Notes under the pieces: generated by a model
The model's database searches: none
What the model was told of the DNA's origin: nothing
The model's input: the letters and a program-made list of their open reading frames with translations, nothing else
Translations under genes and position numbers: made by a program
Origin: Novosphingobium sp.
GTDB lineage: Bacteria > Pseudomonadota > Alphaproteobacteria > Sphingomonadales > Sphingomonadaceae
NCBI GenBank assembly: GCA_030697365.1
Contig: JAUYQH010000200.1
Span: 4,670-68,669 of the forward strand
DNA length: 64,000 nt
Direction: 5' to 3'
Shown: one piece after another, positions 1,034-52,522 of the stretch
Layout of the letters: every line of letters starts with the position of its first letter
How positions within the stretch are numbered: position 1 is the stretch's first letter

Positions 1034-1034
1034 T

Positions 1035-1328
1035 TCAGACCGCTGCAATCGCAACGTTCTTGAGCACGATCATCACGATCTGCAAAAGGATGATCAGCAC
1101 CATAGGCGAGAAGTCGATCGCCCCGGTGGCAGGCATGATCTTGCGAATCGGGCGCAGGATCGGCTCGAGGATCGCGTTGATCGCGGTCCACACCGCATCG
1201 ACGAAACCGTTGTGGCGGTTGACCACGTTGAACGCGAGCAGCAGGCTGAGCACGAACTGGATGATCACCGCGATTACGATCACGTTGATCAGCAGGCTGA
1301 GGATTTCGATCAGGGTATAGAGGAACAC
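1035..1328 (-). CDS. YggT family membrane protein
   Basis: 97 aa, hydrophobic helices with [17 protein letters not shown] motif; stop sits 1 nt before the folD start. Confidence 0.9.
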
Positions 1329-1403
1329 GCGGGCATCCTGATTATGAAACTGGCCGCGGCGATTAGCCGACGCGGGGCGGGTGTATCAACCGGATAATAC
1401 GCG

Positions 1404-2980: not shown

Positions 2981-3061
2981 CGCGGCCCGATAGCGGGATT
3001 TTGACCGTCCGCCAAATCCCCCCTAACACCCCGCCACAACTGGGGTCGGAGCAACTTCCCG

Positions 3062-4390
3062 ATGCGTGTCTTCTACTCACTGCTCGGTATCGCCCTGATC
3101 CTGCTCGTGGCCTTCGCGCTTTCCAGCAACCGTCGCGCGATCCGCCCGCGGGTGGTCGCTGCGGCGTTTGCGCTGCAGGCCGGGTTCGCCGCGATCGTGC
3201 TCTACTTCCCGCCGGGCAACTATGCGTTGCAAAGCGCGGCGCGCGGGGTCGAGAACCTGCTCGGCTATGCCAAGGCGGGGATCGATTTCCTGTTCGGCCC
3301 GCTCGCCAGCCCCGAGATCGGCGGGACCAGCTTCGCCATCGCCGCGCTGCCCGTGATCATCTTCTTCGCCGCGCTGATCTCGATCCTTTATTATCTGGGG
3401 ATCATGCAGCTGATCATCCGCTGGATCGGCGGCGCGCTGGAGAAGATCACCGGGATCAGCAAAGTCGAAAGCCTGACCGCGGCGGCCAACATCTTCGTCG
3501 GGCAGAGCGAGAGCCCGCTGGTGATCCGCCCCTATCTGGCCGGGCTCAACCAGTCGCAGCTGTTCCTGGTGATGACCGTGGGCATGGCTGGCGTCGCGGG
3601 GACAATCCTGGCGGCTTACGCCAGCATGGGGATCCGTATCGACTATCTCGTCGCCGCCGCGTTTATGAGCGCGCCGGGCGGGATCCTGATGGCCAAACTG
3701 ATCATGCCCGACGAATTGCCCCACCGCGAACCCGACCCCGCAGTCCGCGCTGCGATCGAGGCCGAGATCAACGAAGGGGGCCCGGTAGCAGGTGAGCCCC
3801 TGACCAACCCGCACGATCCCGCGACGATCAGCCCGGTCGAGGTGGAATCCATCGAGGATGGCGAGGAGCGCCCCGCCAACATCATCATGGCCGCCAGCCA
3901 GGGCGCGCAGACCGGCGTGAAACTCGCGGTGGCGGTCGGCGCGATGGTTCTCGCGTTCGTCGCGCTTGTCGCGCTCGCCAACGGAATCCTCGGCGGCGTC
4001 GGCGGCTGGTTCGGCTATCCCGACCTCAGCTTCCAGCAGATCATCGGTTACGTTTTCGCTCCGGTGATGTGGCTGCTCGGTGCCGAAAGCTGGGCCGAGG
4101 CGCTGCGCGCGGGCGGGCTGTTCGGTACCAAGCTGGTGCTCAACGAGTTCGTCGCGTTCATCGACCTGGGCAAGGACGCGGTTCTCTCGCCCCACATGGT
4201 CGCGGTGGTGACGTTTGCCTTGTGCGGTTTTGCCAACTTCAGCTCGATCGCAATCCAGATGGCGGTGACCGGCGGCCTCGCTCCCAACCAGCGCCCGCAT
4301 ATCGCGCGACTCGGGATCAAGGCACTGGTGGCGGGAAGCCTCGCCAACCTGATGAGCGCGGCGCTGGCGGGGTTGTTTTTGTCGCTTTGA
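3062..4390 (+). CDS. Concentrative nucleoside transporter (CNT/NupC family)
   Basis: GIDFLFG, ANIFVGQSESP, TKLVLNEFVAF, FALCGFANFSSIAIQ, LANLMSA motifs. Confidence 0.93.
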   Translation: MRVFYSLLGIALILLVAFALSSNRRAIRPRVVAAAFALQAGFAAIVLYFPPGNYALQSAARGVENLLGYAKAGIDFLFGPLASPEIGGTSFAIAALPVIIFFAALISILYYLGIMQLIIRWIGGALEKITGISKVESLTAAANIFVGQSESPLVIRPYLAGLNQSQLFLVMTVGMAGVAGTILAAYASMGIRIDYLVAAAFMSAPGGILMAKLIMPDELPHREPDPAVRAAIEAEINEGGPVAGEPLTNPHDPATISPVEVESIEDGEERPANIIMAASQGAQTGVKLAVAVGAMVLAFVALVALANGILGGVGGWFGYPDLSFQQIIGYVFAPVMWLLGAESWAEALRAGGLFGTKLVLNEFVAFIDLGKDAVLSPHMVAVVTFALCGFANFSSIAIQMAVTGGLAPNQRPHIARLGIKALVAGSLANLMSAALAGLFLSL

Positions 4391-4399
4391 GCGACGTTG

Positions 4400-4516
4400 C
4401 TCTCTCCCCTTCAGGGGAGAAAGACGCAGACTTGGAGCTTGCTCGCTAGTCGAAGTAGAGAGGGGCAGTTTGCGCACAGCCCCCTCTCCCAACCCTCTCC
4501 CCTGAAGGGGAAAGGG
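4400..4516. repeat. Palindromic intergenic element (CCCTCTCCCC..GGGGAGAGGG class)
   Basis: Ends TCTCCCCTTCAGGGGAGA and CTCTCCCCTGAAGGGGAAAGGG are mutually inverted and each self-complementary; fills the gap between the convergent nupC-like gene and mutS. Confidence 0.8.
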
Positions 4517-11387: not shown

Positions 11388-12476
11388 TTACGCCGCCAAC
11401 CGCGTCAGCCGCGCAGCCCATTCGGCAAGCCATGGGGCAAGGCGAGTCAGCGTGACGAGCAGAGGGGCGGTCGCAGGGTCGGTTCCCGCTCCGGCAAGCG
11501 CGCGCGCCAGCCCGATCGGGCGCCCCAGCCGCCCGGCGAACCAGCGCTGCCAATGCGCCGACCCATCCGCGCCGCCCATTTGCCACGCCTGCGCCGCCGA
11601 GATCCCACTGGCGATGGCGATGCCCATGCCCTCCCCGGCGAGCGAGGGGATCACCCCCGCCTGGTCGCCGAGGCGGAACAGCCTGCTGCGGCCCTCGCGC
11701 ACGCGCCAGCCGTAGGGGACGTTGGCGATCGCATCGATCGCCTCAGCTCCCGAGCGATAGGCCAGCCTGTCGGACAAGGCGGGGCATTCCCCGCCCAGCG
11801 CGGCCAGCAGCGCCTCCGGATCGCCCGTCTCGTTCAGCCGCGAGCGGCGGACCGCCAGGCAGACGTTGGCGCTGCCGTCCTCCTGCAAGGCCACCCCGCA
11901 GTAGCCGCGGTCGAACAGGTGCAGCTCGATGGTATCGCTGACCAGCCGCGTCAGCCCCGGCGCGGCGGCGATCCGCACGCGCAGGCCCAGCGTGGGATCG
12001 CTGCCGCGCGCATCTGCTGGCCGCCCCAAACCGCGGACATCGTGCTTGCCGCTGGCGAGGAACAGCGCGGCGGGGCTGAGGTCGGTGCGATCGTCGAGGC
12101 GGACCGTGTCCCCGATCGCGCGAACTGCCACGCCGCGTTCGATCCTCGCTCCGGCCGTCGCCGCCGCGGCGAGTAGGACCGAATCGAGCTTGCGCCGCGA
12201 GACCGAGCGCGCAGGATGGGGCAGCCGTGCTTCGGCATGCCGCTTCCCGGCGAATAGCCGCACCCGCGTGGTCGGCGCGGGGTTGAGCGCGTCGGCCTCG
12301 ACCCCCAGCCGCGCCAGCGTCTCGAGCGTGCGCCAGCTCAGAAACCCGCCGCACAGCGCATCGCCGGTCTCGCGGCTCCGCTCGATCAGCAACGGCCGCT
12401 CGCCCGCGCGGGCCAGCGCAATCGCCGCCGCCGCGCCCGCGGGCCCGCCGCCGACGATCAGCAGCGGGAGGGTCAC
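11388..12476 (-). CDS. FAD-dependent oxidoreductase (geranylgeranyl reductase/hydroxylase-like)
   Basis: Start GTG at 12476 overlapping the upstream stop (GTGA); GGGPAG, LCGGFLS, GDQAGVIPSLAGEGMGIA motifs. Confidence 0.88.
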   Translation of the reverse strand: MTLPLLIVGGGPAGAAAAIALARAGERPLLIERSRETGDALCGGFLSWRTLETLARLGVEADALNPAPTTRVRLFAGKRHAEARLPHPARSVSRRKLDSVLLAAAATAGARIERGVAVRAIGDTVRLDDRTDLSPAALFLASGKHDVRGLGRPADARGSDPTLGLRVRIAAAPGLTRLVSDTIELHLFDRGYCGVALQEDGSANVCLAVRRSRLNETGDPEALLAALGGECPALSDRLAYRSGAEAIDAIANVPYGWRVREGRSRLFRLGDQAGVIPSLAGEGMGIAIASGISAAQAWQMGGADGSAHWQRWFAGRLGRPIGLARALAGAGTDPATAPLLVTLTRLAPWLAEWAARLTRLAA

Positions 12477-13171
12477 GCCTTGAGCTTCTCGACGCAGAGC
12501 CGGAACGGAAACGCGCGGTACACCCGCGCGCCGCTCACCCCCGCCTCGGCGAGGATCGGCGGCCACTCGGCGGGGCGATAGCTGCGCGCGATCGACAATG
12601 TGCCGTCGAGCCGGACGATCCGGTGCCAGCCGAACACGCGCGCCAGCAGCGGGAATCCGGCGTGGGCGAAGGCGTGGCGGTGGAGGTCGTTGACCAGCCA
12701 GCCGACCTGGGCGTGAGTCTCCATGAAGCGCAGAAAATCGACTAACTGCGCGTGCGTCATGTGGTGCGCGACGAGGCTGGAAATCACGAAGTCCCACGAC
12801 TCTCCCGCCAGTTCGGCGTAGTCGCCGGTGACCCAGCGGATCGCCATGCCCGGCGGGGTGTGCGCCCGCGCCGCCAGCTCGCTGCGCGGGTTGAGATCGA
12901 CCCCGGCGAGTTTGATGTCGTGCCCCCGCCGCGCCGCCCAGCGCGCGATGCGGCGAAGCATATCGCCATCGCCGAAGCCCACGTCGAGTAGGCGGAAAGT
13001 GCGCCGCTCGCGATACTTCAAGGCGCGGTCGAGGAAGTTCAAGGTTGGCCGCGCCGCCATCGTCACGCCATTGACCTTGGCCAGATCGCCGACCACCGCG
13101 GCATAAGTCGCAGCGTCGAGATCGGGTGCGTCCATCAGCTCTTCGGCGATGACGCGTTGCTGGAGTGTCAC
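12473..13171 (-). CDS. Class I SAM-dependent methyltransferase-domain protein
   Basis: LLDVGFGDGD motif I, GVDLN, ISSLVAHH, NDLHR; GTGA-coupled to both neighbours. Confidence 0.88.
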   Translation of the reverse strand: MTLQQRVIAEELMDAPDLDAATYAAVVGDLAKVNGVTMAARPTLNFLDRALKYRERRTFRLLDVGFGDGDMLRRIARWAARRGHDIKLAGVDLNPRSELAARAHTPPGMAIRWVTGDYAELAGESWDFVISSLVAHHMTHAQLVDFLRFMETHAQVGWLVNDLHRHAFAHAGFPLLARVFGWHRIVRLDGTLSIARSYRPAEWPPILAEAGVSGARVYRAFPFRLCVEKLKA

Positions 13172-14190
13172 GGCGCCGACCGGAAGCGAAAACCCTCCGC
13201 GGCGAGTCCCGGCCCGAACGCCAGCGCGACCCCGCGCCTCACCGGCGGCCCCTCGATCAACCGCGCGAGAACGAACATCAGTGTCGCCGACGACATGTTG
13301 CCGACCTCCTCCAGCACGCTGCGCGATACGGCCAGCGCATCTTGCGGCAAATCGAGCCCGCGTTCCACCGCGTCGAGGATCGAACGGCCCCCGGCGTGGA
13401 CCGCCCAGCTATCGACCTCGCCCGGATCGACCCCGCCGGTGGCCGCCAGCGCAAAGTCCGGATCGGCCAGCCCTGCCGCGATCCGCCCCGGCACTTCGCC
13501 CGACAGATGCATCGCGAAGCCGCGGTCGGTGATTTCCCAGCGGATCAGCTCGGCGCTATCAGGCAGCGTGGTGGCAAACGGCGTTTCGAGCGCAAAGCCG
13601 GTCGGCTCCGCGGTGACCAGTGCCGCCGCCGCGCCATCGCCGAACTGGAGCATCGCCAGCAGCGGCTCCATCTCGTGCGCCTCCTGCAAATGCAGCGTCG
13701 ACAGCTCGACCGTGACCACCAGCACCCGTGCCGCGGGGTCCGAGCGGACGATATGGCGCGCGCTGCGCAATGCCGCGACCGCGGCGTAGCAGCCCATGAA
13801 GCCTACGAGCAGCCGCTCGACCGAAGGCGCCAGCCCCATCCGCCCGGCGATGATCTGGTCGATCCCGGGGGCGACGAACCCGGTGCAGCTGGCAACCACT
13901 AAATGCGTGATCTCGCCCGGATCGCCCAAGGCATCGATCGCCTGCATCGCGAGATCGGGTGCGGCGGTGGCGTACAGCTCCATCCGCTCGCCGGTGCCGG
14001 GAAGCGGCGAGTTTGCGTAGAACCCACCCGGATCGACCGGGCTGGCGCCGCCGCTGCCCTCCGTCAGGACCGACCAGCGATGCCCGATCCCCGATCGCGC
14101 CGCCATCCGGTCGAACAGCGGGCGCTGGCGTTTGTCGAGCTGGGTGCGGGCCCAGGCGATGAAGGCATGGTGGATATCATGGCCCGGCAC
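13168..14190 (-). CDS. Type III polyketide synthase (chalcone/stilbene synthase family)
   Basis: Cys-His-Asn triad in GFMGCYAA, VHAGGRSIL, GNMSSATL; also FGDGAAA and AFGPGL. The frame extends upstream (CYLNSVGTAVP) with no ATG/GTG/TTG, so the true start is uncertain (see findings). Confidence 0.93.
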   Translation of the reverse strand: MPGHDIHHAFIAWARTQLDKRQRPLFDRMAARSGIGHRWSVLTEGSGGASPVDPGGFYANSPLPGTGERMELYATAAPDLAMQAIDALGDPGEITHLVVASCTGFVAPGIDQIIAGRMGLAPSVERLLVGFMGCYAAVAALRSARHIVRSDPAARVLVVTVELSTLHLQEAHEMEPLLAMLQFGDGAAAALVTAEPTGFALETPFATTLPDSAELIRWEITDRGFAMHLSGEVPGRIAAGLADPDFALAATGGVDPGEVDSWAVHAGGRSILDAVERGLDLPQDALAVSRSVLEEVGNMSSATLMFVLARLIEGPPVRRGVALAFGPGLAAEGFRFRSAP

Positions 14191-14309
14191 CGCGGTGCCG
14201 ACCGAGTTGAGATAGCAGGACGGGGAGTTTGTGACGGCAATGGCCTAGATGCGGGTTCGAGCGCTATTTGTGCCTCCGCAAGGCGCGGTTCAAGCCCCGG
14301 CCCGCCCCA

Positions 14310-15080
14310 TCAGCCCCAGGCCGTGTAAACGCCGTATCCGCTGGTCAGTGTCAGCACGACGCCGACAAGGATCAGCATGTGCCTGGCGGGGATATGCTTG
14401 GCCGCCCAAGCCCCGAAGGGCGCGGCCAGAACGCCGCCGATCAGCAGGCCGAGTGTGGCTCCGGCAAGATCGGAAACGCCGAGCTGGACGATGAACGCCG
14501 CGGAAATCGCAACGGTCAAAAAAAACTCTACTGTGTTGACGGTGCCCACCACCTTGCGCGGTTCGGCCCCCTGGATCAGGAGGTTCGATGTGACCACCGG
14601 CCCCCACCCGCCGCCGCCCCCGGCATCGAGAAAACCGCCGACGAATCCAAGCGACCGCACGAACTTGACCTTGCGCTTGGCGGGCGCGCCAAAGTTCAGC
14701 CCCCGCCACAACAGAAACAGCCCGACGGCGGTAAGGAACGCCAGCACGAACGGCTTGGCCACCGCCGGATCGATCGAAGTCAGGCCATAGGCACCCAACA
14801 CGCCGCCGATCATCGCCGGCAGAAACAGCTTTAGGAACAACTTCCAGTCGATATTGCCATGCAGCACATGGCTCAACCCCGAGATCGCACCGGTGAAGCA
14901 CTTGACCACGTGGATTTTCGCCGAGGCTTGTGCCGGCGGCATTCCGAGCACGCCCACCAGCAACGCGTTGGAGATCACCCCAAATGCCATTCCCAGCGCG
15001 CCATCGACGAGCTGCGCGGCAAAACCGATGGCGATGAACGGCAGCAGGGCGGAAAGATCGAACGCGCCGAATTCCATCAA
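14310..15080 (-). CDS. Sulfite exporter TauE/SafE family membrane protein
   Basis: VDGALGMAFGV, GGGGGWGPVVT, GTVNTVEFF motifs; multiple TM helices. Confidence 0.88.
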   Translation of the reverse strand: MMEFGAFDLSALLPFIAIGFAAQLVDGALGMAFGVISNALLVGVLGMPPAQASAKIHVVKCFTGAISGLSHVLHGNIDWKLFLKLFLPAMIGGVLGAYGLTSIDPAVAKPFVLAFLTAVGLFLLWRGLNFGAPAKRKVKFVRSLGFVGGFLDAGGGGGWGPVVTSNLLIQGAEPRKVVGTVNTVEFFLTVAISAAFIVQLGVSDLAGATLGLLIGGVLAAPFGAWAAKHIPARHMLILVGVVLTLTSGYGVYTAWG

Positions 15081-15193
15081 TCCGCTCCGTAGCTCTACTG
15101 TGCGAGTAGAGATGCCAGGCAGGCTAGGCGAGCAAGATTAGCACAGGTGCGGCGAAGCGAAACTTCCCCGCGCTGGACCAGAGCGAGCGATCA

Positions 15194-15586
15194 TCAACGA
15201 ACGACGATCTGGGCGCGTTCCCAGGCGAAAGTCGTAATCAGACCGCAGCGGGCGCTCTGGATCGAAACGAGCACCTGATCGCCCTCGCGGTGCCAGCGGA
15301 ACGGCAGGTAATAGCGCGCGAAACCGCCGTCGCCGTCGGCGCGGATCGACCAGTCGAGCGGTTTCATGTCCCCGTTGGAGAGGAAGAACCGCGCGGGCGC
15401 TTCGGTGCCGAGCCCCGAGGCTTCGATGCGAAAGAACCGTCCTTCGCCGGTGACGCTCAGAGCGCAGTCGCCATCTTCCGCTCGAGCCACTTCGGGCCAG
15501 TCCGCATCGATTGGCTTGGCCCCCGCGGTGGCCGGGGGCGTGAGAGCCAGAGCAACGATGATCAGGGCGATTCGAGTTCTGGACAT
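15194..15586 (-). CDS. Secreted hypothetical protein (130 aa)
   Basis: Strong RBS AAGAGGAG before ATG at 15586; signal peptide MSRTRIALIIVALALTPPATA; two Cys; beta-rich. Confidence 0.75.
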   Translation of the reverse strand: MSRTRIALIIVALALTPPATAGAKPIDADWPEVARAEDGDCALSVTGEGRFFRIEASGLGTEAPARFFLSNGDMKPLDWSIRADGDGGFARYYLPFRWHREGDQVLVSIQSARCGLITTFAWERAQIVVR

Positions 15587-15599
15587 GGCCGACTCCTCT

Positions 15600-15615
15600 T
15601 GCGATCGGTATCGCA
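15600..15615. promoter_or_regulatory. CRP-family-like palindrome TGCGA-N6-TCGCA
   Basis: TGCGATCGGTATCGCA, a perfect 6-bp inverted repeat just upstream of the 15586 start; could instead be an RNA hairpin. Confidence 0.3.
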
Positions 15616-15652
15616 TGTCCGGCGCGCCCGCTGCCCCTCGTCCGCCACCGCA

Positions 15653-16381
15653 TCAATTCGGGACAGGCTGGCTCCGGCGATAGCGGAAGTACCACACTTC
15701 GTGGCCCTGCGCGCGGGCCTTGGCCTCGTAGCGCGTCTCGGGCCAGCCACCGGGGCGCTGCTGCCAGCTCTGCGGGCCTTCGGCGAGCCATTCGAAATCC
15801 CCGCGGAAGCGGCGCATGACCATCAGCGCGTGGCGGAGATAGACCGGGTGATCGGTGCCGAAGCGGAACTCGCCACCCGGCTTGAGCTTGCGCACAATCA
15901 GCCGCAGCGGTCCGTCGTTCATCATCCGCCGCTTGGCGTGGCGCGCCTTGGGCCAGGGATCGGGGTGGAGCAGATAGACGAAGCTCAAGCTCGCGTCGGG
16001 CACCCGCGCCAGCACTTCCAGCGCATCGCCGTGATGGATGCGGACGTTGCCGAGCGCCCCCCTCCCGCCAAGACCGTCACGGACATGGACCAGCGCCTGG
16101 GCAACGCCGTTGAGGAACGGCTCGGCGCCGATGAAGCCGTGGTCGGGGAGCAGGTCGGCGCGGAACGCCAAGTGCTCGCCCCCGCCGAAACCGATCTCGA
16201 AGTGGAGCGGGCGATCATAGCCGAACAAGCGCTCTGCGGTGACGGGGCCATCCTCGGGCACCGCGATCCGGGGCAGCAGCGTATCGACCAGGCCCTGCTG
16301 GCCGGCGCGCAACGGCTTGCCCTTGGCGCGGCCATAGAGCCGGTTGATCGTGGTCGGGTCACCCGGTTTGTGCGCGGTCAT
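15653..16381 (-). CDS. trmB: tRNA (guanine-N7)-methyltransferase
   Basis: EIGFGGGEHL, GAEPFLNG, LHPDPWPKARHAKRR, GTDHPVY, TRYEAKA. Confidence 0.96.
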   Translation of the reverse strand: MTAHKPGDPTTINRLYGRAKGKPLRAGQQGLVDTLLPRIAVPEDGPVTAERLFGYDRPLHFEIGFGGGEHLAFRADLLPDHGFIGAEPFLNGVAQALVHVRDGLGGRGALGNVRIHHGDALEVLARVPDASLSFVYLLHPDPWPKARHAKRRMMNDGPLRLIVRKLKPGGEFRFGTDHPVYLRHALMVMRRFRGDFEWLAEGPQSWQQRPGGWPETRYEAKARAQGHEVWYFRYRRSQPVPN

Positions 16382-16427
16382 CGGCGCGCGCTAGAGCGCC
16401 GGGTCGGGTCGTGTAAAGCCGTTCGGG

Positions 16428-16610
16428 TCAGGTCGGGCGCATTCGCTTGAGGATCGCAGCCATCTCGCGCAGCGCCTCGCGCCAGTGCAGGGGCGGTGGC
16501 ATCCGGCGCGGCGAAGCGCGCGGCGCGGCAGAGGCAGGTTCGGTCGGCGAAAGCCACGCCTGTCCGGCGATGAAGTCGATCGCTTCGGGCATTTCCAGGT
16601 AACTGGGCAT
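16428..16610 (-). CDS. Small hypothetical protein (60 aa) downstream of ctrA
   Basis: RBS GGAGAAG before ATG at 16610, GC-rich third positions, Pro/Ala linker between two helical ends. Confidence 0.55.
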   Translation of the reverse strand: MPSYLEMPEAIDFIAGQAWLSPTEPASAAPRASPRRMPPPLHWREALREMAAILKRMRPT

Positions 16611-16732
16611 GAGGCTTCTCCTGAATGGTGGCCCTCCCATTGTGCAGTGCAGCATTAACCCGCGACGATCGCGTTGGTTTCATGAATTCGTGGCGGCTGC
16701 GATTGCCTTTTACGCAATCGAGTGCGTCGAAC

Positions 16733-16765
16733 GAAAAACGGCCCGTCCCTCTCAGGACAGGCCGC
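16733..16765 (-). terminator. Rho-independent terminator after ctrA
   Basis: Minus-strand stem GCGGCCTGTCC / GGACGGGCCGT followed by a U tract. Confidence 0.7.
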
Positions 16766-16795
16766 TTTGGATAGCGCCACTTACGCCAGGTTAAG

Positions 16796-17491
<696 letters not shown>

Positions 17492-17578
17492 GTGGCGGTA
17501 CCCCTGTTCCCATAGCCCCGGTAACAAACCGTCAATCCGTCTTGCCGGCCATTAACCACAGGACTTCTGAAGAGAAAA

Positions 17579-17596
17579 GGTTAATTTGCGGTAAAC
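17579..17596. promoter_or_regulatory. Near-consensus CtrA box in the ctrA promoter
   Basis: GGTTAATTTGCGGTAAAC = TTAA-N7-TAAAC (one mismatch to TTAA-N7-TTAAC); extra half-site TTAACC at 17552-17557. Confidence 0.7.
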
Positions 17597-17638
17597 AACG
17601 GGAATCCAACGAGTCGCGGCGGGATTGCCACAGTGGGC

Positions 17639-18634
17639 TCAAGCTGCCGGGACTCCCAACGTCGCCGCGGCCTCGCGCAGTTGCCTGCTGGTCGCGCCGT
17701 CGTTCCTGAAAGCCGCCAGCGCGTCTTGCAGCGCCAGGGCGGCCTTCCGCTGCTCGCCCAACTGCATCCGGCTGCGCATGAGCATGATCCAGCCTTGCGC
17801 ATTGTTCGGGTTGGCCTTGAGCTTGGCCTCGAGTCCGTCGACCATGCCCTGGACCATCTGGTCCTGCGCGCCTTTGGGCAGCGCGCTGGCGGCCTGGATC
17901 TGGTCGCGGGTCGGGCCGGGGATGCCCGCGGTCGCAACGTCCGGGCCGGTTGTGGTGAAGCCATTGGCGGGGGGTGCAGGGCTGGCCGCGGCGAGCCGCG
18001 CGGCGACCTCGATCCCGTTCTTTTTGCCCACCGCCTGGATCACTTCGCGCACGTCGGCCACCCACGGCGCGTCGGCGGGCGAATCCTTGAGCAGCGCGAA
18101 CCATTCGTCGATCGCCGCCTGGTGCCTGCCGTCGAGATCGAGCCGGACCGCGCGGAAGTAACGCGCGCGCGGCTCCTTGGGGTCGAGCGCCAGCGCGGCG
18201 TCGAACGCGGCTGTCGCGTCGGGCGGAACCCCGTCGCCGTCCCTGCTCGCCAGCACCAGCGCCTCGCCCAACATCGAGAAATATTCGGGGTTCTTCGGAT
18301 CGAGCACGGTCGCGCGCTTCATCGCGGTCGCCGCTTCGGCATAACGTTCGGTCTGGTAATACGACCAGCCAAGCATCCGCCAGCCCTCGGCGTCTTGCGG
18401 ATTGGTCTTGAGCCGCGCCTCGAGCTTGGTGATGACCTCATCCACTGATGGCTGTGCGGCTTCGGCAGATGCGGCGGCGGGCGGTGCCTCGCGGTTGCGC
18501 CAGATCGCAATTCCGCCCGCAACGACCGCGATCGCCGCAGCGGCGGCCAGCGCGATCCGCCCACCGCGCGCCGGGCTGCCTGCGGGACTTGGCGTGATTT
18601 CTGACGGTGCGGCGGTGGTCTCGGTTTCGCTCAC
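17639..18634 (-). CDS. TPR protein, CcmI/CycH/NrfG-like cytochrome c maturation factor
   Basis: GTG at 18634 with RBS GAGGAG; one N-terminal TM helix; LEARLKTNPQDAEGWRMLGWSY and LEAKLKANPNNAQGWIMLMRS repeats typical of CcmI/CycH. Confidence 0.75.
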   Translation of the reverse strand: MSETETTAAPSEITPSPAGSPARGGRIALAAAAAIAVVAGGIAIWRNREAPPAAASAEAAQPSVDEVITKLEARLKTNPQDAEGWRMLGWSYYQTERYAEAATAMKRATVLDPKNPEYFSMLGEALVLASRDGDGVPPDATAAFDAALALDPKEPRARYFRAVRLDLDGRHQAAIDEWFALLKDSPADAPWVADVREVIQAVGKKNGIEVAARLAAASPAPPANGFTTTGPDVATAGIPGPTRDQIQAASALPKGAQDQMVQGMVDGLEAKLKANPNNAQGWIMLMRSRMQLGEQRKAALALQDALAAFRNDGATSRQLREAAATLGVPAA

Positions 18635-18849
18635 GGGGGCCCTCCTCAAAGCAGCGCAACAGCCGCGCGTATCGGGTGCGCGCAAGGCACTGGTCAAGCG
18701 CTTCGCGGCAAACGCCGGGCAAGTCGAAAATAGCGGGTGGAAATCGTAGCTTGTTTCGCTAAGGTCGAGTCAATCGGGGGTCGCAGCAGGCAGATACGGG
18801 GCGTGGGCACGATAGTGCCGCGACCTGTTGCGACGGGGGACGTACACCG

Positions 18850-21426
18850 GTGAGCCAGATCTACAAGGTAGCGATCATCGGGTCGGGGCCGGCGGGGATG
18901 AGCGCCGCGAGCCACGCCGCCAAGCTCGGCCTCAACCACGTCCTGCTCGAAAAGACCGACCACCTTTCCGATACGATCTACAAGTATCAGAAGGGCAAGC
19001 ACGTCATGGCGACGCCCAACCAGCTGATCCTGCGAAGCGACCAGGAATTCGACGCAGGCAAGCGCGAGGACATCCTCGGCAAGTGGAATGACCGGACCAA
19101 GGAACTCAGCGTCAACGTCAAGTTCAACGCCGAGGTCAAATCGATCAAGGGCACCGGCGATGCGATTGCCGGATCGATCCAGAAGATGGTCGCGCGCGCC
19201 CGCGACGGCACCACCACCACCACCGAACTACAGCGCATGGCTCCGCCCTACGAACTCACGCTGACCAGTGGCGAGAAGGTAATCGCCGAGAACGTCATCC
19301 TGGCGATCGGCACGCAGGGCAACCCCAACCTGATGCGCTGCCCCGGCGGTGACTTGCCCCACGTGACCTACCAGCTCGACGATCCCTATGTGGTGGTCGA
19401 TCAGCACATCACCGTGATCGGCACCGGCGACGCGGGGATCGAGAACGCGCGCGGGCTGGTTGAGGACGAGGTCCAGGGCAACGTCGTGACGGTGCTCAAC
19501 CGCGCCCAGAAATCGACCAACGTGCGTGAAAGCTTTGCGACCGCGAAGGAACCCAACGCCAAGGCGCTGGTCGATGACGATGCCGCGGGCCGCCTGACGA
19601 TCATGTACGAGACCGAGACCAAGGAGGTCGAACCCGGCTGGATCGTGCTGGCGACGCGCGACGGCGAGGAACGGATCCGCTGCGACCGGATCATCGCGCG
19701 GATCGGCTCGGCCCCGCCGCGCGGGTTCGTCGAGGGCTGCGGGATCGAGTTCGCCAGCCAGGACCGGCTCGCCTTCCCCACGCTGTCGCCGGTGTTCGAA
19801 TCGACCGCGCCGGGGATTTTCGTGATCGGCGCGCTGGCCGGCTATCCGCTGATCAAGCACTGCATGAACCAGGGCTACGACGCGGTCGAGTTCATCAACG
19901 GCAACACCAGCCTGAAACCTGCCGACCAACCGCTGCTCGACGCCAAGTTCGCGGGATTGCCCGGCAATCGCTCGGTCGAGCAATGGCTCGATTTCCTCAA
20001 GAGCAACGTCACCATCCTCGAAGGCATGACCACGCTGCAGCTGCGTGAGTTCATGCTCGATTCGGATATGCGCGCGTACCGCAAGGGCGAGGTAATCTTC
20101 GAAAAGAACGATCCCGGATCCTCGCTGTTCGCGATCGCAGACGGGCTGGTCCACGTCCAGATCGATCCCACCGACAAGTCCAAGATCGTACCGATCGAGA
20201 AGGGTTCGATCTTCGGCGAAGTCGGGCTGATCTCGGGCCGCCGCCGCGGCGCGACGATCGTCGCCGCCGAGGACACCGTCTGCGTCGAGATAAGCCGCAA
20301 CGCCGCGCTCAAGCTGCAGAGCCAGGTGCCGACCGCCAAGAAGGCGATCGAACGCATCTCGACCGAGCGCCAGCTGCTCCAGATGTTCGGCGCGGGGTTG
20401 AACCCGGCGGACATCAAGGAAGTGGTCGACGACGCCAAGATCATGCAGATCAAGGCCGGCGACACGATCCTGCGCGAGGGCGACGACGGCAAGGAAATCT
20501 TCGTGATCCGGGTCGGCTCGATGATCGTGGAGAAGATGGTCGGCGGCAAGCCGGTGTTCCTCAGCTACCTTCCCGCGGGATCCTACGTCGGGGAAATGGC
20601 GCTGATCGCGGGGGGCCAGCGCACCGCCAGCGTGCGCGCCGCGGTCAAATCCGAAGTCATCAAGATCGACGGCGAGAAATTCGAGGCGGTGCTCAGGACC
20701 AAGCCCGCACTGCTCGAACGCGCGCGCAAGGACATGGACTTGCGCCGGCAGACCAACGCGCTGATCGAATCGAAGAAGGATTCCATATCGAGCGTGGTCG
20801 ATCTGTGGTCGGAACAGGCCGAGTTCCTCGTCGCGCAGGGGCTGGGCGAGGCGACCGACGTGCTGCTGATCGACGAAACGCTCTGCGTCGGCTGCGACAA
20901 CTGTGAAAAGGCCTGCGCCGACAGCCATGAAGGGCTGAGCCGGCTCGACCGCGAGGCGGGCAAGACTTTCGCCCATCTCCATGTGCCGACATCGTGCCGC
21001 CACTGCGAACACCCACACTGCATGGCCGATTGCCCGCCCAACGCGATCCACCGCGGCCCCGACGGCGAGGTGTTCATCAACGACACCTGCATCGGCTGCG
21101 GCAATTGCCAGCGCAACTGCCCATATGGCGTGATCCGGATGGACAAGGTCCCGCCCAAGAAGCCTTCGCTGCTCAACTGGCTGTTCTTCGGAAGCGGCCC
21201 CGGCCCGGGCGAACCGCCTTACAAGTGGTCGAAGAAGAACATGAAGTACACTGGCAATCCGGCGATCGACGAATCGCTCGACCGCAAGAAGGCGGTCAAG
21301 TGCGACATGTGCGCGGGGATCGATGGCGGCCCGGCCTGCGTGCGGGCCTGCCCGACCGGCGCAGCGATCCGCATCGCGCCCGACGAGTTCCTGACCGTCG
21401 CCCGACTCGAAGAGGAGAGCGCGTGA
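18850..21426 (+). CDS. FAD/NAD(P) oxidoreductase fused to two cNMP-binding domains and a 4x[4Fe-4S] ferredoxin domain
   Basis: GSGPAG and GTGDAG Rossmann motifs; FGEVGLISGRRRGAT and VGEMALIAGGQRTAS phosphate-binding cassettes; CVGCDNCEKAC, CRHCEHPHCMADCP, CIGCGNCQRNCP, CDMC..ACVRACP. Confidence 0.9.
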   Translation: MSQIYKVAIIGSGPAGMSAASHAAKLGLNHVLLEKTDHLSDTIYKYQKGKHVMATPNQLILRSDQEFDAGKREDILGKWNDRTKELSVNVKFNAEVKSIKGTGDAIAGSIQKMVARARDGTTTTTELQRMAPPYELTLTSGEKVIAENVILAIGTQGNPNLMRCPGGDLPHVTYQLDDPYVVVDQHITVIGTGDAGIENARGLVEDEVQGNVVTVLNRAQKSTNVRESFATAKEPNAKALVDDDAAGRLTIMYETETKEVEPGWIVLATRDGEERIRCDRIIARIGSAPPRGFVEGCGIEFASQDRLAFPTLSPVFESTAPGIFVIGALAGYPLIKHCMNQGYDAVEFINGNTSLKPADQPLLDAKFAGLPGNRSVEQWLDFLKSNVTILEGMTTLQLREFMLDSDMRAYRKGEVIFEKNDPGSSLFAIADGLVHVQIDPTDKSKIVPIEKGSIFGEVGLISGRRRGATIVAAEDTVCVEISRNAALKLQSQVPTAKKAIERISTERQLLQMFGAGLNPADIKEVVDDAKIMQIKAGDTILREGDDGKEIFVIRVGSMIVEKMVGGKPVFLSYLPAGSYVGEMALIAGGQRTASVRAAVKSEVIKIDGEKFEAVLRTKPALLERARKDMDLRRQTNALIESKKDSISSVVDLWSEQAEFLVAQGLGEATDVLLIDETLCVGCDNCEKACADSHEGLSRLDREAGKTFAHLHVPTSCRHCEHPHCMADCPPNAIHRGPDGEVFINDTCIGCGNCQRNCPYGVIRMDKVPPKKPSLLNWLFFGSGPGPGEPPYKWSKKNMKYTGNPAIDESLDRKKAVKCDMCAGIDGGPACVRACPTGAAIRIAPDEFLTVARLEEESA

Positions 21427-22388
21427 TGGCGACGCTTCCCCACACCCCCGACAAGGGTGACTTCGAGACCGCGGCGACGACCAAATCCTCGACCTCGACC
21501 CGCACCCCCAAGACCGCACCGCGGGTCCGCCGCGACAAGGTCACCAGCCACGACAGCTTCCTCAACTACGGCAACGGCCGCTGGTGGAAGATCGCCATCG
21601 TCATCGCGGTCGTTTCGTTCGCGACCTATTTCCTGATCGACGTCGAGCCGCGTCACAACGGCGGATCGTGGTACGGCTATACGATGGGCACGATCGGCTT
21701 TGCGCTGATCCTCTGGCTGACCCTGCTCGGCGTGCGCAAGCGGGCGATGACTCCGGGACGGTGGAGCCTCAAGGCGTGGACCAGCGCGCACGTTTATCTC
21801 GGGCTCAGCCTGATCGTGATCGGCACGCTCCACACCGGGTTCCAGCTGGGCTGGAACGTTCACACGCTGGCGTGGGCGCTGATGATGCTGGTGATCCTGT
21901 CGGGACTGTTCGGGATCTACGTCTACGCCACGCTGCCCAAGGCGCTGTCGGCCAACCGTTACGACGAGGACGGCGCGATCACCGAGAAGGTGATGATCGA
22001 ACAGATGAAGCAGCTCGATCGCCAGATCCACGATGCCGCACAGCCGCTCGACCCCGAAGCCGCGACCATTGTCGAGCGGAGCCTGGGCGAGAACGTCTTC
22101 GCGGGCAGTTTCTGGCAGCGCGCCCGCAACAGCTATCCCGGTGACCTGACCCGGATCGCGATGGGCGAGCTACGCAAGTTGCGCAACTTCCGGCCGCGAA
22201 CCGACGACGATCCGTTCGAGCGGGTCGAAACGCTTCTGTCCAAGAAGGAGGCCCTGCTCGCGAAATTGCGACGGCACCTCCAGCTCAAGTCGTGGCTCCA
22301 AGCCTGGCTCTATATCCACGTCCCTGCAACCTTCGCGCTGATCGCCGCGCTCTCTGCGCACGTGTTCAGCGTGTTCTTCTACTGGTGA
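21426..22388 (+). CDS. Membrane protein with ferric-reductase-like di-heme b ligands
   Basis: ATG overlaps the upstream TGA (TGATG); His pairs at codons 21789/21831 and 22317/22359, each H-X13-H in a hydrophobic helix. Confidence 0.8.
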   Translation: MATLPHTPDKGDFETAATTKSSTSTRTPKTAPRVRRDKVTSHDSFLNYGNGRWWKIAIVIAVVSFATYFLIDVEPRHNGGSWYGYTMGTIGFALILWLTLLGVRKRAMTPGRWSLKAWTSAHVYLGLSLIVIGTLHTGFQLGWNVHTLAWALMMLVILSGLFGIYVYATLPKALSANRYDEDGAITEKVMIEQMKQLDRQIHDAAQPLDPEAATIVERSLGENVFAGSFWQRARNSYPGDLTRIAMGELRKLRNFRPRTDDDPFERVETLLSKKEALLAKLRRHLQLKSWLQAWLYIHVPATFALIAALSAHVFSVFFYW

Positions 22389-22395: not shown

Positions 22396-24276
22396 ATGAG
22401 CTTTCTTGTCCGCCAGATCGCACTGAAGGCCAGCGGGGACGAGATCGTCCGCGCAAAAAGGGTCGATGGCGACGAAATGAAGATCGGCCGTGACGGCGCT
22501 TGCGGCCTCCACCTGCCCGATCTTGCGGTCGATCCCGAGCACGCGCTGGTCACCCAGCTTGACGAGACCCACATCGAGATCGAATCGCTGCACGGCCAGC
22601 CGTTCGAAGTCGATGGCCAGTCGGTCCAGCGCAAGGAGCTCGACGTCACGCTCGGCTCCGAACTCAAGTTCGGCAGCCACCGGATCAAGCTGGGGCAAGA
22701 TGCGCGCAGCCGCTTTCCGACGTTTACCGTGCGCCGCGAAGCGCCGCTGTCGCACTCCAACTCGGATCCCGACACCAACGAGGCCTATACGCTCAAGGGA
22801 CTGGTCCCGGGCAAGCGGATGAGCGCCTGGGCGTTCGCCGCGATGGTCCTGCTCGCGTTCCTCGCCTGGCCGATCTGGAGCTATGCCAGCTACAGCGACC
22901 TCGCGCTCAAGAAGGACGCTGCGCGGCCGGCGGGCTATCATGGCGATAAGGCGTGGGAATCGGGCAAGCTCAGCCTCGCGCACCAGGGGCTCGAGAACGA
23001 TTGCCAATCGTGCCACGTCGAGCCGTTCGTGGCGGTGCGCGACAACGCCTGCCAGACCTGCCACACCAAGGTCCACGATCACATCAAGGACACCGCGCGG
23101 TTGGTGGCGGCGCGCGGCGAGCCGGGCGGGTTCGCCTCGTTCACACGGGCGGTGGCGACGACCTTCAACAAGCCCGCGGGGCGCTGTGTCGAATGTCACA
23201 CCGAGCACGAGGGCGCGGGTGATATGGCACCCACGGCGCAGAAGTTCTGCACCGATTGCCATGCCGAGATGAAATCGCGCTTGCCCGACACGAAGCTTCC
23301 CGACGCGGCCGACTTCGGCACCTCGCACCCGCAGCTGCGCCCGACGGTGATCGCCGACACCACCGACGCAGCCAAGCCGAAGCTGCGCCAGATCGTCTGG
23401 TCGCAGGACGCCAAGGAATTCAACGGGCTGAAATTCACCCACGCCCAGCACCTCTCGACGGTCAATGGCGTTGCCCAGATGGTCCGCCGCCGCCCCAACG
23501 AGTTCCCCGACCAGGAAGGGCTCGATTGCGAGAACTGCCACCAGACAGATGCCTCAGGCGTGTGGTTCAAGCCGGTGGTGATGGAGGAATCCTGCCAGAC
23601 CTGCCACAGTCTGACCTTCGACAAGATCGGCGGGACCTTCCGCACACTGCGTCACGGTGAGCCCGAGATGGTCGTCGCCGACTTGCGCGGGTTCTTCGCC
23701 GCGGGCGCGCCGACGCGCCCGATCAACCTCGATTCGATGAGCCGCCGGGTTCCGGGCGATCGCGCCGCGGCCGAGACCGCGGGCGATTACGCACGCGCGG
23801 TGCGGTTCTATCCGACCCAGGCCGGCCAGGCGATCCAGATGCTGTTCAACAAGGGCGGCGCCTGCTTCGACTGCCACAACATCACCCGCACCGGCACCGC
23901 GGCGACTGCGGGCTACAACGTCCAGAACGTGGTCCAGACCCAGCGCTACTACCACAAAGGCTGGTTCACCCACGCCAAACACACCAAGTACGAATGCGTC
24001 GATTGCCACGTGAAGGCCCAGAACACCAACGACGCCACCGACCTTCTGGTCCCCGGGCTCGACGGCAAGGGCGGCTGCCGCGATTGCCACGTCGGCGGGA
24101 CCGGGGCCAAGCTGGCTTCGGCCTCGGTCAAGCAACCGGTGGAATCGCAATGCGCGATGTGCCACGACTATCACCTCGACGACAAAGCACCGTGGATGAC
24201 CCGCTTGCCAGCATCCCGGCGCGCCTCTTACGATCGCCGCCGCAACGCGGGTGCGGGGCAGAACGCCTCCAAGTAG
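22396..24276 (+). CDS. Membrane-anchored decaheme cytochrome c with N-terminal FHA-like domain
   Basis: KIGRDGACGLHLPDLAVDPEH FHA-like motif; TM helix AWAFAAMVLLAFLAWPIW; 10 CXXCH motifs (CQSCH, CQTCH, CVECH, CTDCH, CENCH, CQTCH, CFDCH, CVDCH, CRDCH, CAMCH). Confidence 0.92.
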   Translation: MSFLVRQIALKASGDEIVRAKRVDGDEMKIGRDGACGLHLPDLAVDPEHALVTQLDETHIEIESLHGQPFEVDGQSVQRKELDVTLGSELKFGSHRIKLGQDARSRFPTFTVRREAPLSHSNSDPDTNEAYTLKGLVPGKRMSAWAFAAMVLLAFLAWPIWSYASYSDLALKKDAARPAGYHGDKAWESGKLSLAHQGLENDCQSCHVEPFVAVRDNACQTCHTKVHDHIKDTARLVAARGEPGGFASFTRAVATTFNKPAGRCVECHTEHEGAGDMAPTAQKFCTDCHAEMKSRLPDTKLPDAADFGTSHPQLRPTVIADTTDAAKPKLRQIVWSQDAKEFNGLKFTHAQHLSTVNGVAQMVRRRPNEFPDQEGLDCENCHQTDASGVWFKPVVMEESCQTCHSLTFDKIGGTFRTLRHGEPEMVVADLRGFFAAGAPTRPINLDSMSRRVPGDRAAAETAGDYARAVRFYPTQAGQAIQMLFNKGGACFDCHNITRTGTAATAGYNVQNVVQTQRYYHKGWFTHAKHTKYECVDCHVKAQNTNDATDLLVPGLDGKGGCRDCHVGGTGAKLASASVKQPVESQCAMCHDYHLDDKAPWMTRLPASRRASYDRRRNAGAGQNASK

Positions 24277-24286: not shown

Positions 24287-25135
24287 ATGCTGGTCGCACA
24301 GATTACCGATATCCACCTTGGCTTCGAGCCGGACACGCCGGGCGAGTTCAATCGCCAGCGGCTGGATCGTGCGCTAGCTGCGCTGACCGCGCTCGATCCG
24401 CTGCCCGATCTGATGCTGGCAACCGGCGACCTCGTCGATCGCGGCGATGTCGACAGTTATCGCCGCCTGCGCGAGGCGTTTGCCGGGCTGCCCTTCCCCG
24501 TCCACTACGCGCTGGGCAACCACGACGTGCGGCGTAACTTTGCGCAAGTCTTCCCCGAGGCCGCCTTGATCGACGGCTTCCTCCAGTATGTGATCGAGAC
24601 CGGCCCGCTGCGGCTGGTCGTGCTCGATACGCTGCAAGAAGGCCGCCACGGCGGCGCGTTCTGCGAACGGCGCGCGCGGTGGCTGCGCGATACGCTCGAC
24701 GCAGCGCCAGAGCGCAATACGCTGATCGTACAGCATCATCCGCCGGTCGAAACGGGCATCGCGTGGATGAACACCGATCCGGCCGAGCCCTGGGTCCACC
24801 GCCTGGCCGATTGCCTGCGCGGTCGTCCGAACGTGGTCGGGCTGGTTTGCGGACATATCCACCGCGCGATCGTCACCCGTTGGGAGGGCGTCACCGTCGC
24901 CACCTGTCCCTCGACCGCGCCACAAGTCGCGCTCGAACTGCTCCCGATCGACCCCGAGCGCCCCGACGGCCGCCCGCTGATCGTCGCCGATCCTCCCGCT
25001 TATGCGCTGCACTGGTGGAACGGGCGCGAACTGATCACCCACTTCGACACCGCCGAAGACCACGAAGTGCTTGCCAGCTATGACGACGACCTCAAGGACA
25101 TGATCGCCAACATGCTGGCGGAACGTCCGGTTTAG
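24287..25135 (+). CDS. CpdA/Icc-like metallophosphoesterase (putative 3',5'-cyclic nucleotide phosphodiesterase)
   Basis: ATG at 24287, 10 nt after the cytochrome stop; QITDIH, TGDL, GNHD, HHPP, GHIHR metal-binding motifs. Confidence 0.85.
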   Translation: MLVAQITDIHLGFEPDTPGEFNRQRLDRALAALTALDPLPDLMLATGDLVDRGDVDSYRRLREAFAGLPFPVHYALGNHDVRRNFAQVFPEAALIDGFLQYVIETGPLRLVVLDTLQEGRHGGAFCERRARWLRDTLDAAPERNTLIVQHHPPVETGIAWMNTDPAEPWVHRLADCLRGRPNVVGLVCGHIHRAIVTRWEGVTVATCPSTAPQVALELLPIDPERPDGRPLIVADPPAYALHWWNGRELITHFDTAEDHEVLASYDDDLKDMIANMLAERPV

Positions 25136-52465: not shown

Positions 52466-52522
52466 TGCATTCCCGGTCGCGCGTTCCTAGCTGTTGCCGG
52501 GACGAAACGGACAGGACGAAGC

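Follow-up and report, generated by a model that had tools for sequence, protein, structure and literature searches.

The locus and its cytochrome gene

The gene considered here specifies a multihaem c-type cytochrome of Novosphingobium sp., and it is carried by a 64-kb stretch of chromosomal DNA from contig JAUYQH010000200.1, which we call the window, meaning the whole stretch that was analysed. It occupies positions 22396-24276, third in a tight row of four + strand genes. The predicted protein links a forkhead-associated (FHA) domain, through a single transmembrane (TM) helix, to a domain with ten haem attachment sites, and its parts are distributed as follows.

22396-24276, + strand: gene of the FHA-decahaem cytochrome, 626 amino acids (aa), GC content at third codon positions (GC3) 0.86
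22396-22740, + strand: predicted cytoplasmic FHA-fold domain with a degenerate phosphothreonine site (aa 1-115; R32 kept; D46, P47, G67 and Q68 at the binding positions)
22741-22887, + strand: linker, juxtamembrane motif and single predicted TM helix, delimited from pLDDT, conservation and hydropathy
22888-24276, + strand: predicted periplasmic decahaem c domain, with ten CXXCH motifs and ten invariant additional histidines

This open reading frame (ORF) is a genuine gene. It holds ten CXXCH motifs, at aa 203, 219, 264, 285, 378, 400, 490, 534, 561 and 586, and no other such motif occurs in any stop-to-stop frame of at least 60 aa when the six frames of the whole 64 kb are scanned, so that a chance origin of the cluster is excluded. 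The possibility of a false gene call, or of motifs assembled by chance, was rejected on the basis of this frame scan, of conservation and of GC3. Existing annotation of the family goes no further than 'cytochrome c3 family protein'.

An FHA fold ahead of the membrane

An earlier note on this DNA had described the N-terminus of the cytochrome as FHA-like, and both profiles and modelling now support that description. Compared alone with Pfam, the window protein comes just short of the cut-off for two related families, FHA (PF00498, 19.3 vs 20.7 bits) and Yop-YscD_cpl (23.7 vs 33.2 bits). A profile of 17 sphingomonad N-terminal domains recovers the first FHA domain of Rad53 at an E value of 1e-4 and GarA/OdhI near 1e-3, and a profile of 85 diverse family members recovers GarA at 9e-9 and OdhI at 1e-7; several relatives exceed the Pfam FHA cut-off by themselves, P0371 for example with 33 bits. 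The AlphaFold model of aa 1-140 consists of 11 strands, with a pLDDT of 80 that rises above 90 across much of aa 21-110, and it is disordered from aa 117 onwards. When this model was submitted to Foldseek against the Protein Data Bank (PDB), the top 50 of 50 matches were FHA domains, with a probability of 1.00 and a TM-score of up to 0.71. On these grounds aa 1-115 are predicted to have the FHA fold. The note had also proposed a search with hidden Markov models against FHA and multihaem families: it places Cytochrome_C7 and Cytochrom_c3_2 above their cut-offs, and it reaches FHA by way of the family profiles and of relatives.

The binding surface of this domain has been considerably altered. 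In the HMMER alignment with Rad53 FHA1, G31-R32 correspond to G69-R70, D46 to Ser85, P47 to Asn86, H49 to His88, G67 to Thr106 and Q68 to Asn107. Of the five residues that contact the phosphopeptide, the arginine alone survives, and an acidic residue, Asp46, stands at the position of the phosphate-binding serine. The note's picture of a cytoplasmic FHA domain that keeps its Gly-Arg pair and has lost the serine and the asparagine agrees with this alignment, and it extends to the family at large. Among 125 diverse full-length members, G31 is found in all 125, R32 in 123 and H49 in 106, while the canonical serine position holds Ser in 18 of them (otherwise Ala, Gly, Arg, Pro or Leu across the family) and the canonical asparagine position holds Asn in 8. 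The note further held the NG motif to be lost, which is right for the position of Asn107, taken by Gln68; the second (V)D/N-G turn, which is structural, is still present as D73-G74. Loss of the phosphothreonine-contacting serine and asparagine is, in these alignments, a trait of the family, and because degeneracy is a family property, a phosphate-independent role of the domain, as the note had proposed, is the better bet. In one variant of the family (P0306), a PilZ domain, which binds c-di-GMP, is fused ahead of the FHA-TM-decahaem arrangement.

The membrane helix and the ten-haem domain

Hydropathy identifies one hydrophobic segment in the cytochrome, at aa 142-164, directly preceded by the conserved pair K140-R141. 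This pair belongs to a juxtamembrane motif, L133...K140-R141-x-x-A144-W145, in which R141 is kept in 120 of the 125 members and W145 in 112, a conservation which suggests that the helix packs tightly against the five-TM (5-TM) protein encoded by the preceding gene. The linker ahead of it (aa 117-140) is modelled with a pLDDT below 50, that is, with low confidence. As the N-terminus is itself the first strand of a folded domain, the protein has no N-terminal signal peptide; and as c-type haem attachment is periplasmic, following what is established of cytochrome c maturation (Ccm), its N-terminal domain must be cytoplasmic. From the single TM segment and the cytoplasmic N-terminal domain we infer that the haem domain lies in the periplasm. 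The cytochrome is therefore predicted to be a type II membrane protein, with the FHA fold inside, one TM helix, and ten c-type haem sites in the periplasm; the single helix and the count of ten motifs are those given by the earlier note.

None of the ten CXXCH motifs varies in 30 sphingomonad homologues or in the 85 diverse members, and the latter share ten further invariant histidines (H196, 229, 271, 311, 349, 352, 420, 526, 529 and 593). This provides one candidate distal ligand per haem and fits a wire for electron transfer in which every haem is bis-His ligated and none is left open for catalysis. Exactly ten motifs are present in 131 of 149 cluster representatives, the remainder being mostly fragments. 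With Pfam scores of 54 bits for Cytochrome_C7 and 51.4 bits for Cytochrom_c3_2, both above cut-off, the domain is composed of c7/c3-like modules. In the PDB, its profile matches a fragment of a Geobacter 'cytochrome c family protein' (3OUQ), a 16-haem cytochrome and subunit A of ACIII, as well as, locally and over 64 residues, the MtrA chain of 6R2Q; a PDB search with the single sequence of the haem domain gave nothing below an E value of 0.3.

Three known families were considered and rejected. The NapC/NirT/CymA family (PF03264) gives no match at E<=0.01, and the window protein has an FHA domain of 140 aa before its TM helix and ten haems, not a tetrahaem arrangement. The HmcA model (NF045713) scores 29.1 bits for a cut-off of 400 bits. 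As for MtrA/DmsE/PioA, no model of that family is matched, the MtrC/F domain is below threshold (23.2 vs 30 bits), the window protein is anchored by a TM helix, and the match with MtrA is limited to the 64 residues just mentioned.

The partners of the cytochrome in the operon

The remaining members of the operon, and the gene that diverges from it, are these.

17639-18697, - strand: CcmI/CycH-like tetratricopeptide repeat (TPR) protein of cytochrome c maturation (Pfam TPR_CcmH_CycH 72.4 bits; NCBIfam NrfG-like), divergent from the operon
18850-21426, + strand: flavo/cNMP/FeS protein, 858 aa (Pfam Pyr_redox_3/2, two cNMP_binding domains with 121.8 bits, Fer4 families)
21426-22388, + strand: 5-TM membrane protein with four paired histidines, 320 aa (five hydropathy segments; H-x13-H pairs)
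24287-25135, + strand: predicted class III (CpdA/SpdA-like) cyclic-nucleotide phosphodiesterase (Metallophos 64.9 bits; SpdA and CpdA models)

The 858-aa protein is a composite of a TrxR-like FAD/NAD(P)H region (about aa 1-375), two cyclic-nucleotide-monophosphate-binding (cNMP) domains (about aa 376-655) and a ferredoxin-like region (aa 679-834). Its flavin part has both GxGxxG motifs and no redox-active CxxC, which we take to be the mark of a subtype resembling ferredoxin-NADP reductase. The phosphate-binding cassettes of its cNMP domains, FGE...R(G/T)A(T/S), are intact as read in the sequence, and sixteen cysteines are arranged in four Cys4 motifs of the [4Fe-4S] type, as in four-cluster proteins of the DmsB/HybA/NrfC kind. 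It has no TM segment, and by eye no signal peptide, the N-terminus leading straight into the FAD-binding GxGxxG. The stop codon of its gene overlaps the ATG of the next one, in the arrangement TGATG.

That next gene specifies the 5-TM protein, which carries one H-x13-H pair in TM3 (H122/H136) and a second one in TM5 (H298/H312), with a helical cytoplasmic loop of about 120 aa between TM4 and TM5. The four histidines, together with H146, are invariant in 82 diverse sequences and in 26 sphingomonads. Transmembrane dihaem b cytochromes, such as cytochrome b of the bc1 complex, NOX/FRE and FdnI, have their ligands spaced in this way, and the protein is a candidate for a dihaem b relay across the membrane; there is no Ferric_reduct match to it in Pfam. 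Besides the four presumed haem ligands, H146 and N144 (window 21858-21863) are kept in all 82 sequences; placed where TM4 reaches the periplasm, they may make up a quinol site or touch the first c haem. The N-terminal cytoplasmic tail (aa 1-45, window 21426-21560) is rich in Thr and Ser, a feature kept in Novosphingobium-like sequences and deleted in Blastomonas, Sphingorhabdus and others.

The last gene has its probable start ATG at 24287, 11 nt past the stop of the cytochrome gene. The motifs D-x-H, GD, GNHD and GHIH can all be read in its product, for which the best NCBIfam matches are SpdA (133.9 bits) and CpdA (100.8 bits), both below their equivalog cut-offs. By motifs and models it would be a class III cNMP phosphodiesterase. 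Scans for promoters, terminators and inverted repeats in the operon and in the divergent intergenic region produced nothing above background.

Conservation, gene order and expression

Synteny in sphingomonads was established on the best 80 loci found by alignment of the 5-TM protein, all of them from Sphingomonadales and belonging to at least 10 named genera. The order flavo/cNMP/FeS protein, TM protein, FHA-decahaem cytochrome and phosphodiesterase is kept, with the four genes present in 78, 80, 78 and 70 of the 80 loci respectively, and each shortfall that was checked proved to be the end of a contig; the divergent ccmI accompanies them in 70. The most conserved gene of the four is that of the flavo-FeS protein (63-91% identity). 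A decahaem protein had appeared unexpected to the authors of the earlier note in a sphingomonad background. This cannot be maintained: the operon is conserved in gene order across these loci, so that the protein is a normal feature of aerobic Sphingomonadales, and the motif of its TM partner is encoded in at least 599 species-representative genomes. Cultured isolates of Novosphingobium, Sphingobium, Blastomonas and Sphingomonas are among the organisms that possess the operon.

Homologue searches scored over 1,000 sequences for the cytochrome and over 6,242 for the TM protein. Exhaustive search of representatives at 50% identity yielded 2,113 clusters, of which 416 reach E<=1e-30; alignment mostly starts at residue 1 and thus includes the FHA domain. 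The closest homologues of the cytochrome are from Novosphingobium (86% identity), the nearest named relative being Novosphingobium sp. Gsoil 351 (85%). A search with the diverse profile gave nearly all its matches in Sphingomonadales, within the limit set by the word index used, and cluster look-up places members in Granulosicoccaceae as well. The window contig itself is fully matched by a groundwater metagenome run, in all sampled words.

Distant lineages show what is constant in this assembly. A member with 30% identity (locus L081) has the same trio of genes, and a scan seeded from it produced a diverse metagenomic set of 80 loci, in 79 of which the FHA domain was assessed. The TM gene there always directly precedes the ten-haem FHA protein, and the FHA domain was detected in 79 of 79. 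The fused flavo/cNMP/FeS gene lies immediately 5' of this pair in most of the loci. The constant partner of the FHA-decahaem cytochrome is therefore the 5-TM protein, not the cNMP-FeS enzyme, and having the flavo-FeS gene as a neighbour, or lacking it, makes no difference to the invariance of G31-R32 and of the remaining FHA hallmarks. CcmI, CcmB or CcmF flank the pair in distant lineages (L096, L097, L116, L136, L138, L140, L154), and the association of the operon with Ccm genes is, by gene order, conserved.

In lineages other than sphingomonads, three more genes commonly lie 3' of the pair. One is a 160-aa ORF; another, in 48 loci, codes for an HbpS-like protein of about 650 aa with three haem-binding/degrading repeats; and the last, in 32 loci, codes for a second ten-CXXCH protein, which is very large (950-1,600 aa) and has almost no Pfam match. 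This extended downstream module was seen in L082, L085, L087, L088, L096, L097, L100, L104, L113, L114 and L116, and also in L124, L131, L136, L138, L140, L152, L154 and L157 (in L154, for instance, at 11514-13475 and 13695-18275); it is absent from the window. In four other loci (L142, L119, L127 and L128) the trio is joined to penta- and tetrahaem genes. The first of them displays, over positions 256-6555, a pentahaem ORF, a 553-aa ORF and two tetrahaem ORFs directly 5' of the flavo/cNMP/FeS-TM-FHA-decahaem trio.

Two stranded RNA-seq runs (X33/X34) come from a close Sphingobium fuliginis relative (L079, 5000-13500). The four genes are covered continuously on the sense strand, at a depth of about 3-60, and coverage changes strand at ccmI, which fits a single polycistronic transcript. 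Depth is highest at the 5' end of the first gene of the operon, and molecule ends accumulate near position 6495.

The other genes of the window are chromosomal housekeeping genes, among them those of MutS, malic enzyme, RpoN, LptB, PmbA and PolA. At 52406-54841 (+ strand) this bacterial chromosome also encodes a double-AAA ATPase of 811 aa which is CDC48/p97-like and has CDC48 N-terminal domains, and a type III polyketide synthase of 340 aa, chalcone/stilbene synthase-like, adjoins a SAM-dependent methyltransferase at 12473-14190 (- strand).

Relation to known systems

The family has been flagged in one paper and two preprints and is functionally uncharacterised; literature searches on sphingomonad multihaem proteins and extracellular electron transfer (EET), and on HbpS with multihaem proteins, found nothing on it. 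In marine Alphaproteobacteria, the ptdABCDEFG operon is described as encoding an FAD/NAD(P) oxidoreductase, a cNMP-binding 4Fe-4S protein, a 'ferric reductase-like' TM protein and a decahaem protein, PtdG, which is called periplasmic, the FHA domain being unmentioned (bioRxiv 10.1101/2023.11.21.568154). Compared by description only, the PtdC/PtdE-PtdF-PtdG part matches the trio of the window, and the four metagenomic loci with penta- and tetrahaem genes unite a trio of the window type with such genes; the 553-aa ORF of L142, which has no Pfam match, is at the position of the porin of the ptd paper and is a candidate porin. The window differs in that the flavin and cNMP/FeS parts are fused in one 858-aa protein, and in that pentahaem, porin and tetrahaem genes are absent, a phosphodiesterase gene following instead.

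The second preprint concerns the 'NHC' of Ferrigenium straubiae, a nonahaem protein in which one TM helix separates a cytosolic FHA domain from a multihaem domain in the periplasm, with a 5-TM protein without database matches, a [4Fe-4S] protein, nirK and SHP as its neighbours; its authors propose a role in the uptake of Fe(II)-derived electrons to quinone, and state that FHA domains had previously been unreported with multihaem cytochromes (bioRxiv 10.64898/2026.01.22.701106). A pangenome table of the Gallionellaceae lists, as cluster 403, a 'Forkhead-associated protein, 10 CXXCH' (mSystems 2023, PMC10734462). By description again, NHC and cluster 403 share with the window the succession of FHA domain, one TM helix and periplasmic multihaem domain beside 5-TM and [4Fe-4S] proteins; NHC has nine haems and the window protein ten, its neighbours include nirK and SHP, and no phosphodiesterase is described. 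Likewise, it is by its description, a one-TM multihaem protein beside 5-TM and cNMP/4Fe-4S proteins, that the window corresponds to a cluster of the Ptd/NHC type.

Other resemblances are of principle or of topology. Geobacter CbcL/Cbc and Desulfovibrio Hmc/Tmc/Nhc associate a periplasmic multihaem c protein with a membrane b-type cytochrome (and, in Hmc/Tmc, cytoplasmic FeS proteins) as a redox wire, but they exchange electrons with quinones or with cytoplasmic enzymes of sulfate reduction, and all of them lack flavin/NAD(P)H modules, cNMP domains and FHA domains. In NOX/FRE and Fre-MsrQ, two bis-His haems b (H-x13-H), stacked across the membrane, receive electrons from NAD(P)H and flavin on the cytoplasmic side and reduce an acceptor outside, a scheme that the window would reproduce; in contrast with them, its TM protein has 5 and not 6 TM helices and no Ferric_reduct or fold match, an FeS wire is interposed, the flavoprotein is separate, and the acceptor is a decahaem protein. 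The 5-TM protein has no PDB sequence relative, and its model, of moderate confidence, matched nothing, so that by fold it may or may not be a member of NOX/FRD or FdnI. The topology recalls YscD/PrgH/EscD, of the inner-membrane ring of type III secretion systems, where an N-terminal cytoplasmic FHA-like domain is followed by a single TM helix and a periplasmic domain, in line with the weak Yop-YscD_cpl match. Domains of the YscD type have lost the residues that bind phosphothreonine and have an established role in protein docking. Their periplasmic part and their machine are unrelated to the present one, however, and Gly-Arg is strictly kept in the FHA-decahaem family. Finally, MtrA/DmsE/PioA/MtoA use ten bis-His c haems as a wire of c7/c3-like modules, but they are soluble and inserted in a porin, whereas the window protein is anchored in the inner membrane and no porin is recognised next to it. 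As far as sequences allow us to judge, the complex of the window resembles Hmc/Tmc/Cbc and NOX/Fre-MsrQ in principle and YscD-type proteins in topology, and it is a member of none of these.

A proposed mechanism and its alternatives

The architecture of the individual proteins, as predicted, is close to certain. How they work together is a matter of more tentative reasoning, and the account that we favour, while holding it to be somewhat short of probable, makes the cytochrome the periplasmic terminus of a complex in which three proteins pass electrons across the membrane, a cNMP-gated NAD(P)H wire, with the phosphodiesterase as fourth product of the operon. The predicted cofactor sites of the three proteins would align from cytoplasm to periplasm, and their genes are translationally coupled and conserved together. 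Electrons would pass from NAD(P)H to FAD, then along four [4Fe-4S] clusters to two haems b that cross the membrane, and from there to the ten haems c of the periplasm, a path that would bypass the quinone pool. The two cNMP domains, placed between the flavin and FeS modules, would set the on/off state together with the co-encoded phosphodiesterase. On the cytoplasmic side of the complex, the FHA domain would serve, independently of phosphorylation, as a clamp or as a regulatory interface; it would most likely engage the large loop that the 5-TM protein exposes to the cytoplasm and, in lineages that have it, the flavo-FeS enzyme.

Outward flow is favoured because NAD(P)H is the point of lowest potential and because the membrane potential would help electrons to leave; reduction of NAD(P)+ from c haems would be doubly uphill. 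The penta- and tetrahaem genes of L142, the second ten-haem ORF of 32 loci and the match with the description of ptdABCDEFG are also counted in favour of an outward, EET-like reading. A path of this kind would waste reducing power and proton-motive force, hence gating is to be expected, and it is this need that would account for the second-messenger parts that surround the wire, namely the cNMP domains, the phosphodiesterase and, in the variant, PilZ.

Several facts weigh against this account. In about 15 of the metagenomic loci there is no adjacent flavo/cNMP/FeS gene, ccm genes being found in its place, yet the FHA domain and the TM protein are kept; input from NAD(P)H is consequently not universal, or it is encoded elsewhere. 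For the same reason, the docking of the FHA domain on the 18850-21426 product, which the earlier note had put forward, is somewhat weakened and should be considered as possible. The invariant Arg32, accompanied outside sphingomonads by Arg44, could still hold an anionic or phosphorylated ligand. The presence of haem b in the 5-TM protein is deduced from the spacing of its histidines and from a Pfam match to Ni_hydr_CYTB below threshold (25.7 vs 30.1 bits); the AlphaFold model of this protein (pLDDT 69) has no fold relative, Foldseek giving nothing below an E value of 0.6, and a profile search in the PDB found no sequence relative. The direction of flow is argued from thermodynamics. Lastly, the 64-kb window encodes no periplasmic or outer-membrane acceptor, as judged from the CXXCH frame scan and from the ORFs scanned against Pfam. 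The earlier note had seen no MtrB-like porin nearby, and indeed the Pfam scan, which covered roughly 30 of the 37 called window ORFs, recognised no porin, nor is there a second cytochrome gene in the window.

The most serious alternative, which we consider unlikely, is a conduit linked to quinol. The 5-TM protein would be a quinol dehydrogenase, comparable to FdnI, NarI or the b domain of CbcL, and with the decahaem cytochrome it would join the quinone pool to periplasmic acceptors, performing the task of CymA, CbcL or ImcH; the flavo/cNMP/FeS protein would then be an optional second input or a regulator and not the principal donor. Such a division would agree with the fact that the TM protein and the FHA-decahaem cytochrome form the invariant core, found also in those loci where the flavo-FeS gene is not adjacent. 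The weak similarity of the 5-TM protein to Ni_hydr_CYTB, a family of the cytochrome b561/FdnI type, points in the same direction, H146 and N144 could be part of a quinol site, and a link to quinone is what the Ferrigenium authors have also proposed (bioRxiv 10.64898/2026.01.22.701106). However, in sphingomonads the flavo-FeS gene shows translational coupling with the TM gene and the highest conservation of the four, a four-cluster FeS wire placed on a membrane b cytochrome is hard to see as a mere regulator, and no quinone-site motif was identified.

It is less plausible still, and on the whole improbable, that the assembly is a transmembrane redox sensor, the decahaem domain reading the redox state of the periplasm and the FHA domain relaying it to the cNMP-binding protein and the phosphodiesterase, for the sake of signalling and not of bulk electron transfer. 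Signalling domains are admittedly abundant in the operon to an unusual degree (FHA, a pair of cNMP domains, the phosphodiesterase and, in one variant, PilZ), RNA depth is low in the single data set, and no gene for a terminal acceptor lies within the window. Ten bis-His haems, four FeS clusters and a flavin nevertheless far exceed the cofactors of sensors, and the linkage to further multihaem genes in other lineages indicates electron transport.

Inward uptake, in which electrons from donors in the periplasm or outside the cell (Fe(II), reduced humics and the like) would reach the quinone pool or cytoplasmic FeS/flavin acceptors by way of the decahaem domain, seems to us quite improbable. It is suggested by the members of the family found in Fe(II)-oxidizing Gallionellaceae, where the cluster is expressed under all conditions tested, but NAD(P)+ reduction from c-type haems would be uphill and opposed by the membrane potential, and sphingomonads are organoheterotrophs with no evident need for it, nor is there an outer-membrane uptake module in the window.

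In GarA, an autoinhibitory ETTS motif is bound, once phosphorylated, by the protein's own FHA domain, and the tail of the TM protein resembles this motif. A canonical FHA domain, which would read a phosphothreonine placed, for example, on that N-terminal tail by a Ser/Thr kinase whose gene lies elsewhere, and through which phosphorylation would control the complex, is nonetheless the least credible of the alternatives: Gly-Arg is invariant (123-125 of 125), the canonical serine does survive in a minority (18 of 125) and the Novosphingobium tail has a conserved ETAATT..STST, but Asp46 would repel phosphate, serine and asparagine are lost in most of the family, the Thr-rich tail is missing from many sphingomonads, and a motif scan for the catalytic loop of Hanks kinases found none in the 64 kb, which is weak evidence.

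Implications

Returning to the gated NAD(P)H wire, its full form would be that aerobic heterotrophs such as sphingomonads own a switchable, quinone-independent wire of 17 cofactors for the export of low-potential NAD(P)H electrons to the periplasm, gated by cNMP and reset by the phosphodiesterase, with a phosphate-blind FHA domain as the mechanical coupler of donor and relay, the whole behaving as a respiratory 'valve' under second-messenger control, of a hitherto undescribed type. We regard this complete picture as doubtful, though possible. What is at stake is a multihaem complex for electron transfer across the membrane whose regulatory equipment is unprecedented; it has been flagged previously and is uncharacterised. 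While multihaem cytochromes are usually tied to anaerobic metal respirers, here is a decahaem operon conserved in a large order of aerobic bacteria of soil, water and plants, which recurs in Gallionellaceae, Granulosicoccaceae, the marine lineages reported to have ptd operons and many metagenomic lineages.

If the proposed mechanism is true, this would be a bacterial counterpart of the transmembrane electron export of NADPH oxidases, made of different parts, and one of the rare complexes of respiratory type to be directly controlled by a second messenger. It would also give a concrete role to an FHA domain that acts independently of phosphorylation, and it would supply the missing inner-membrane module of the ptd and NHC clusters. 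The operon is compact, with four genes, and it is present in cultured isolates, so that the model should be directly testable.

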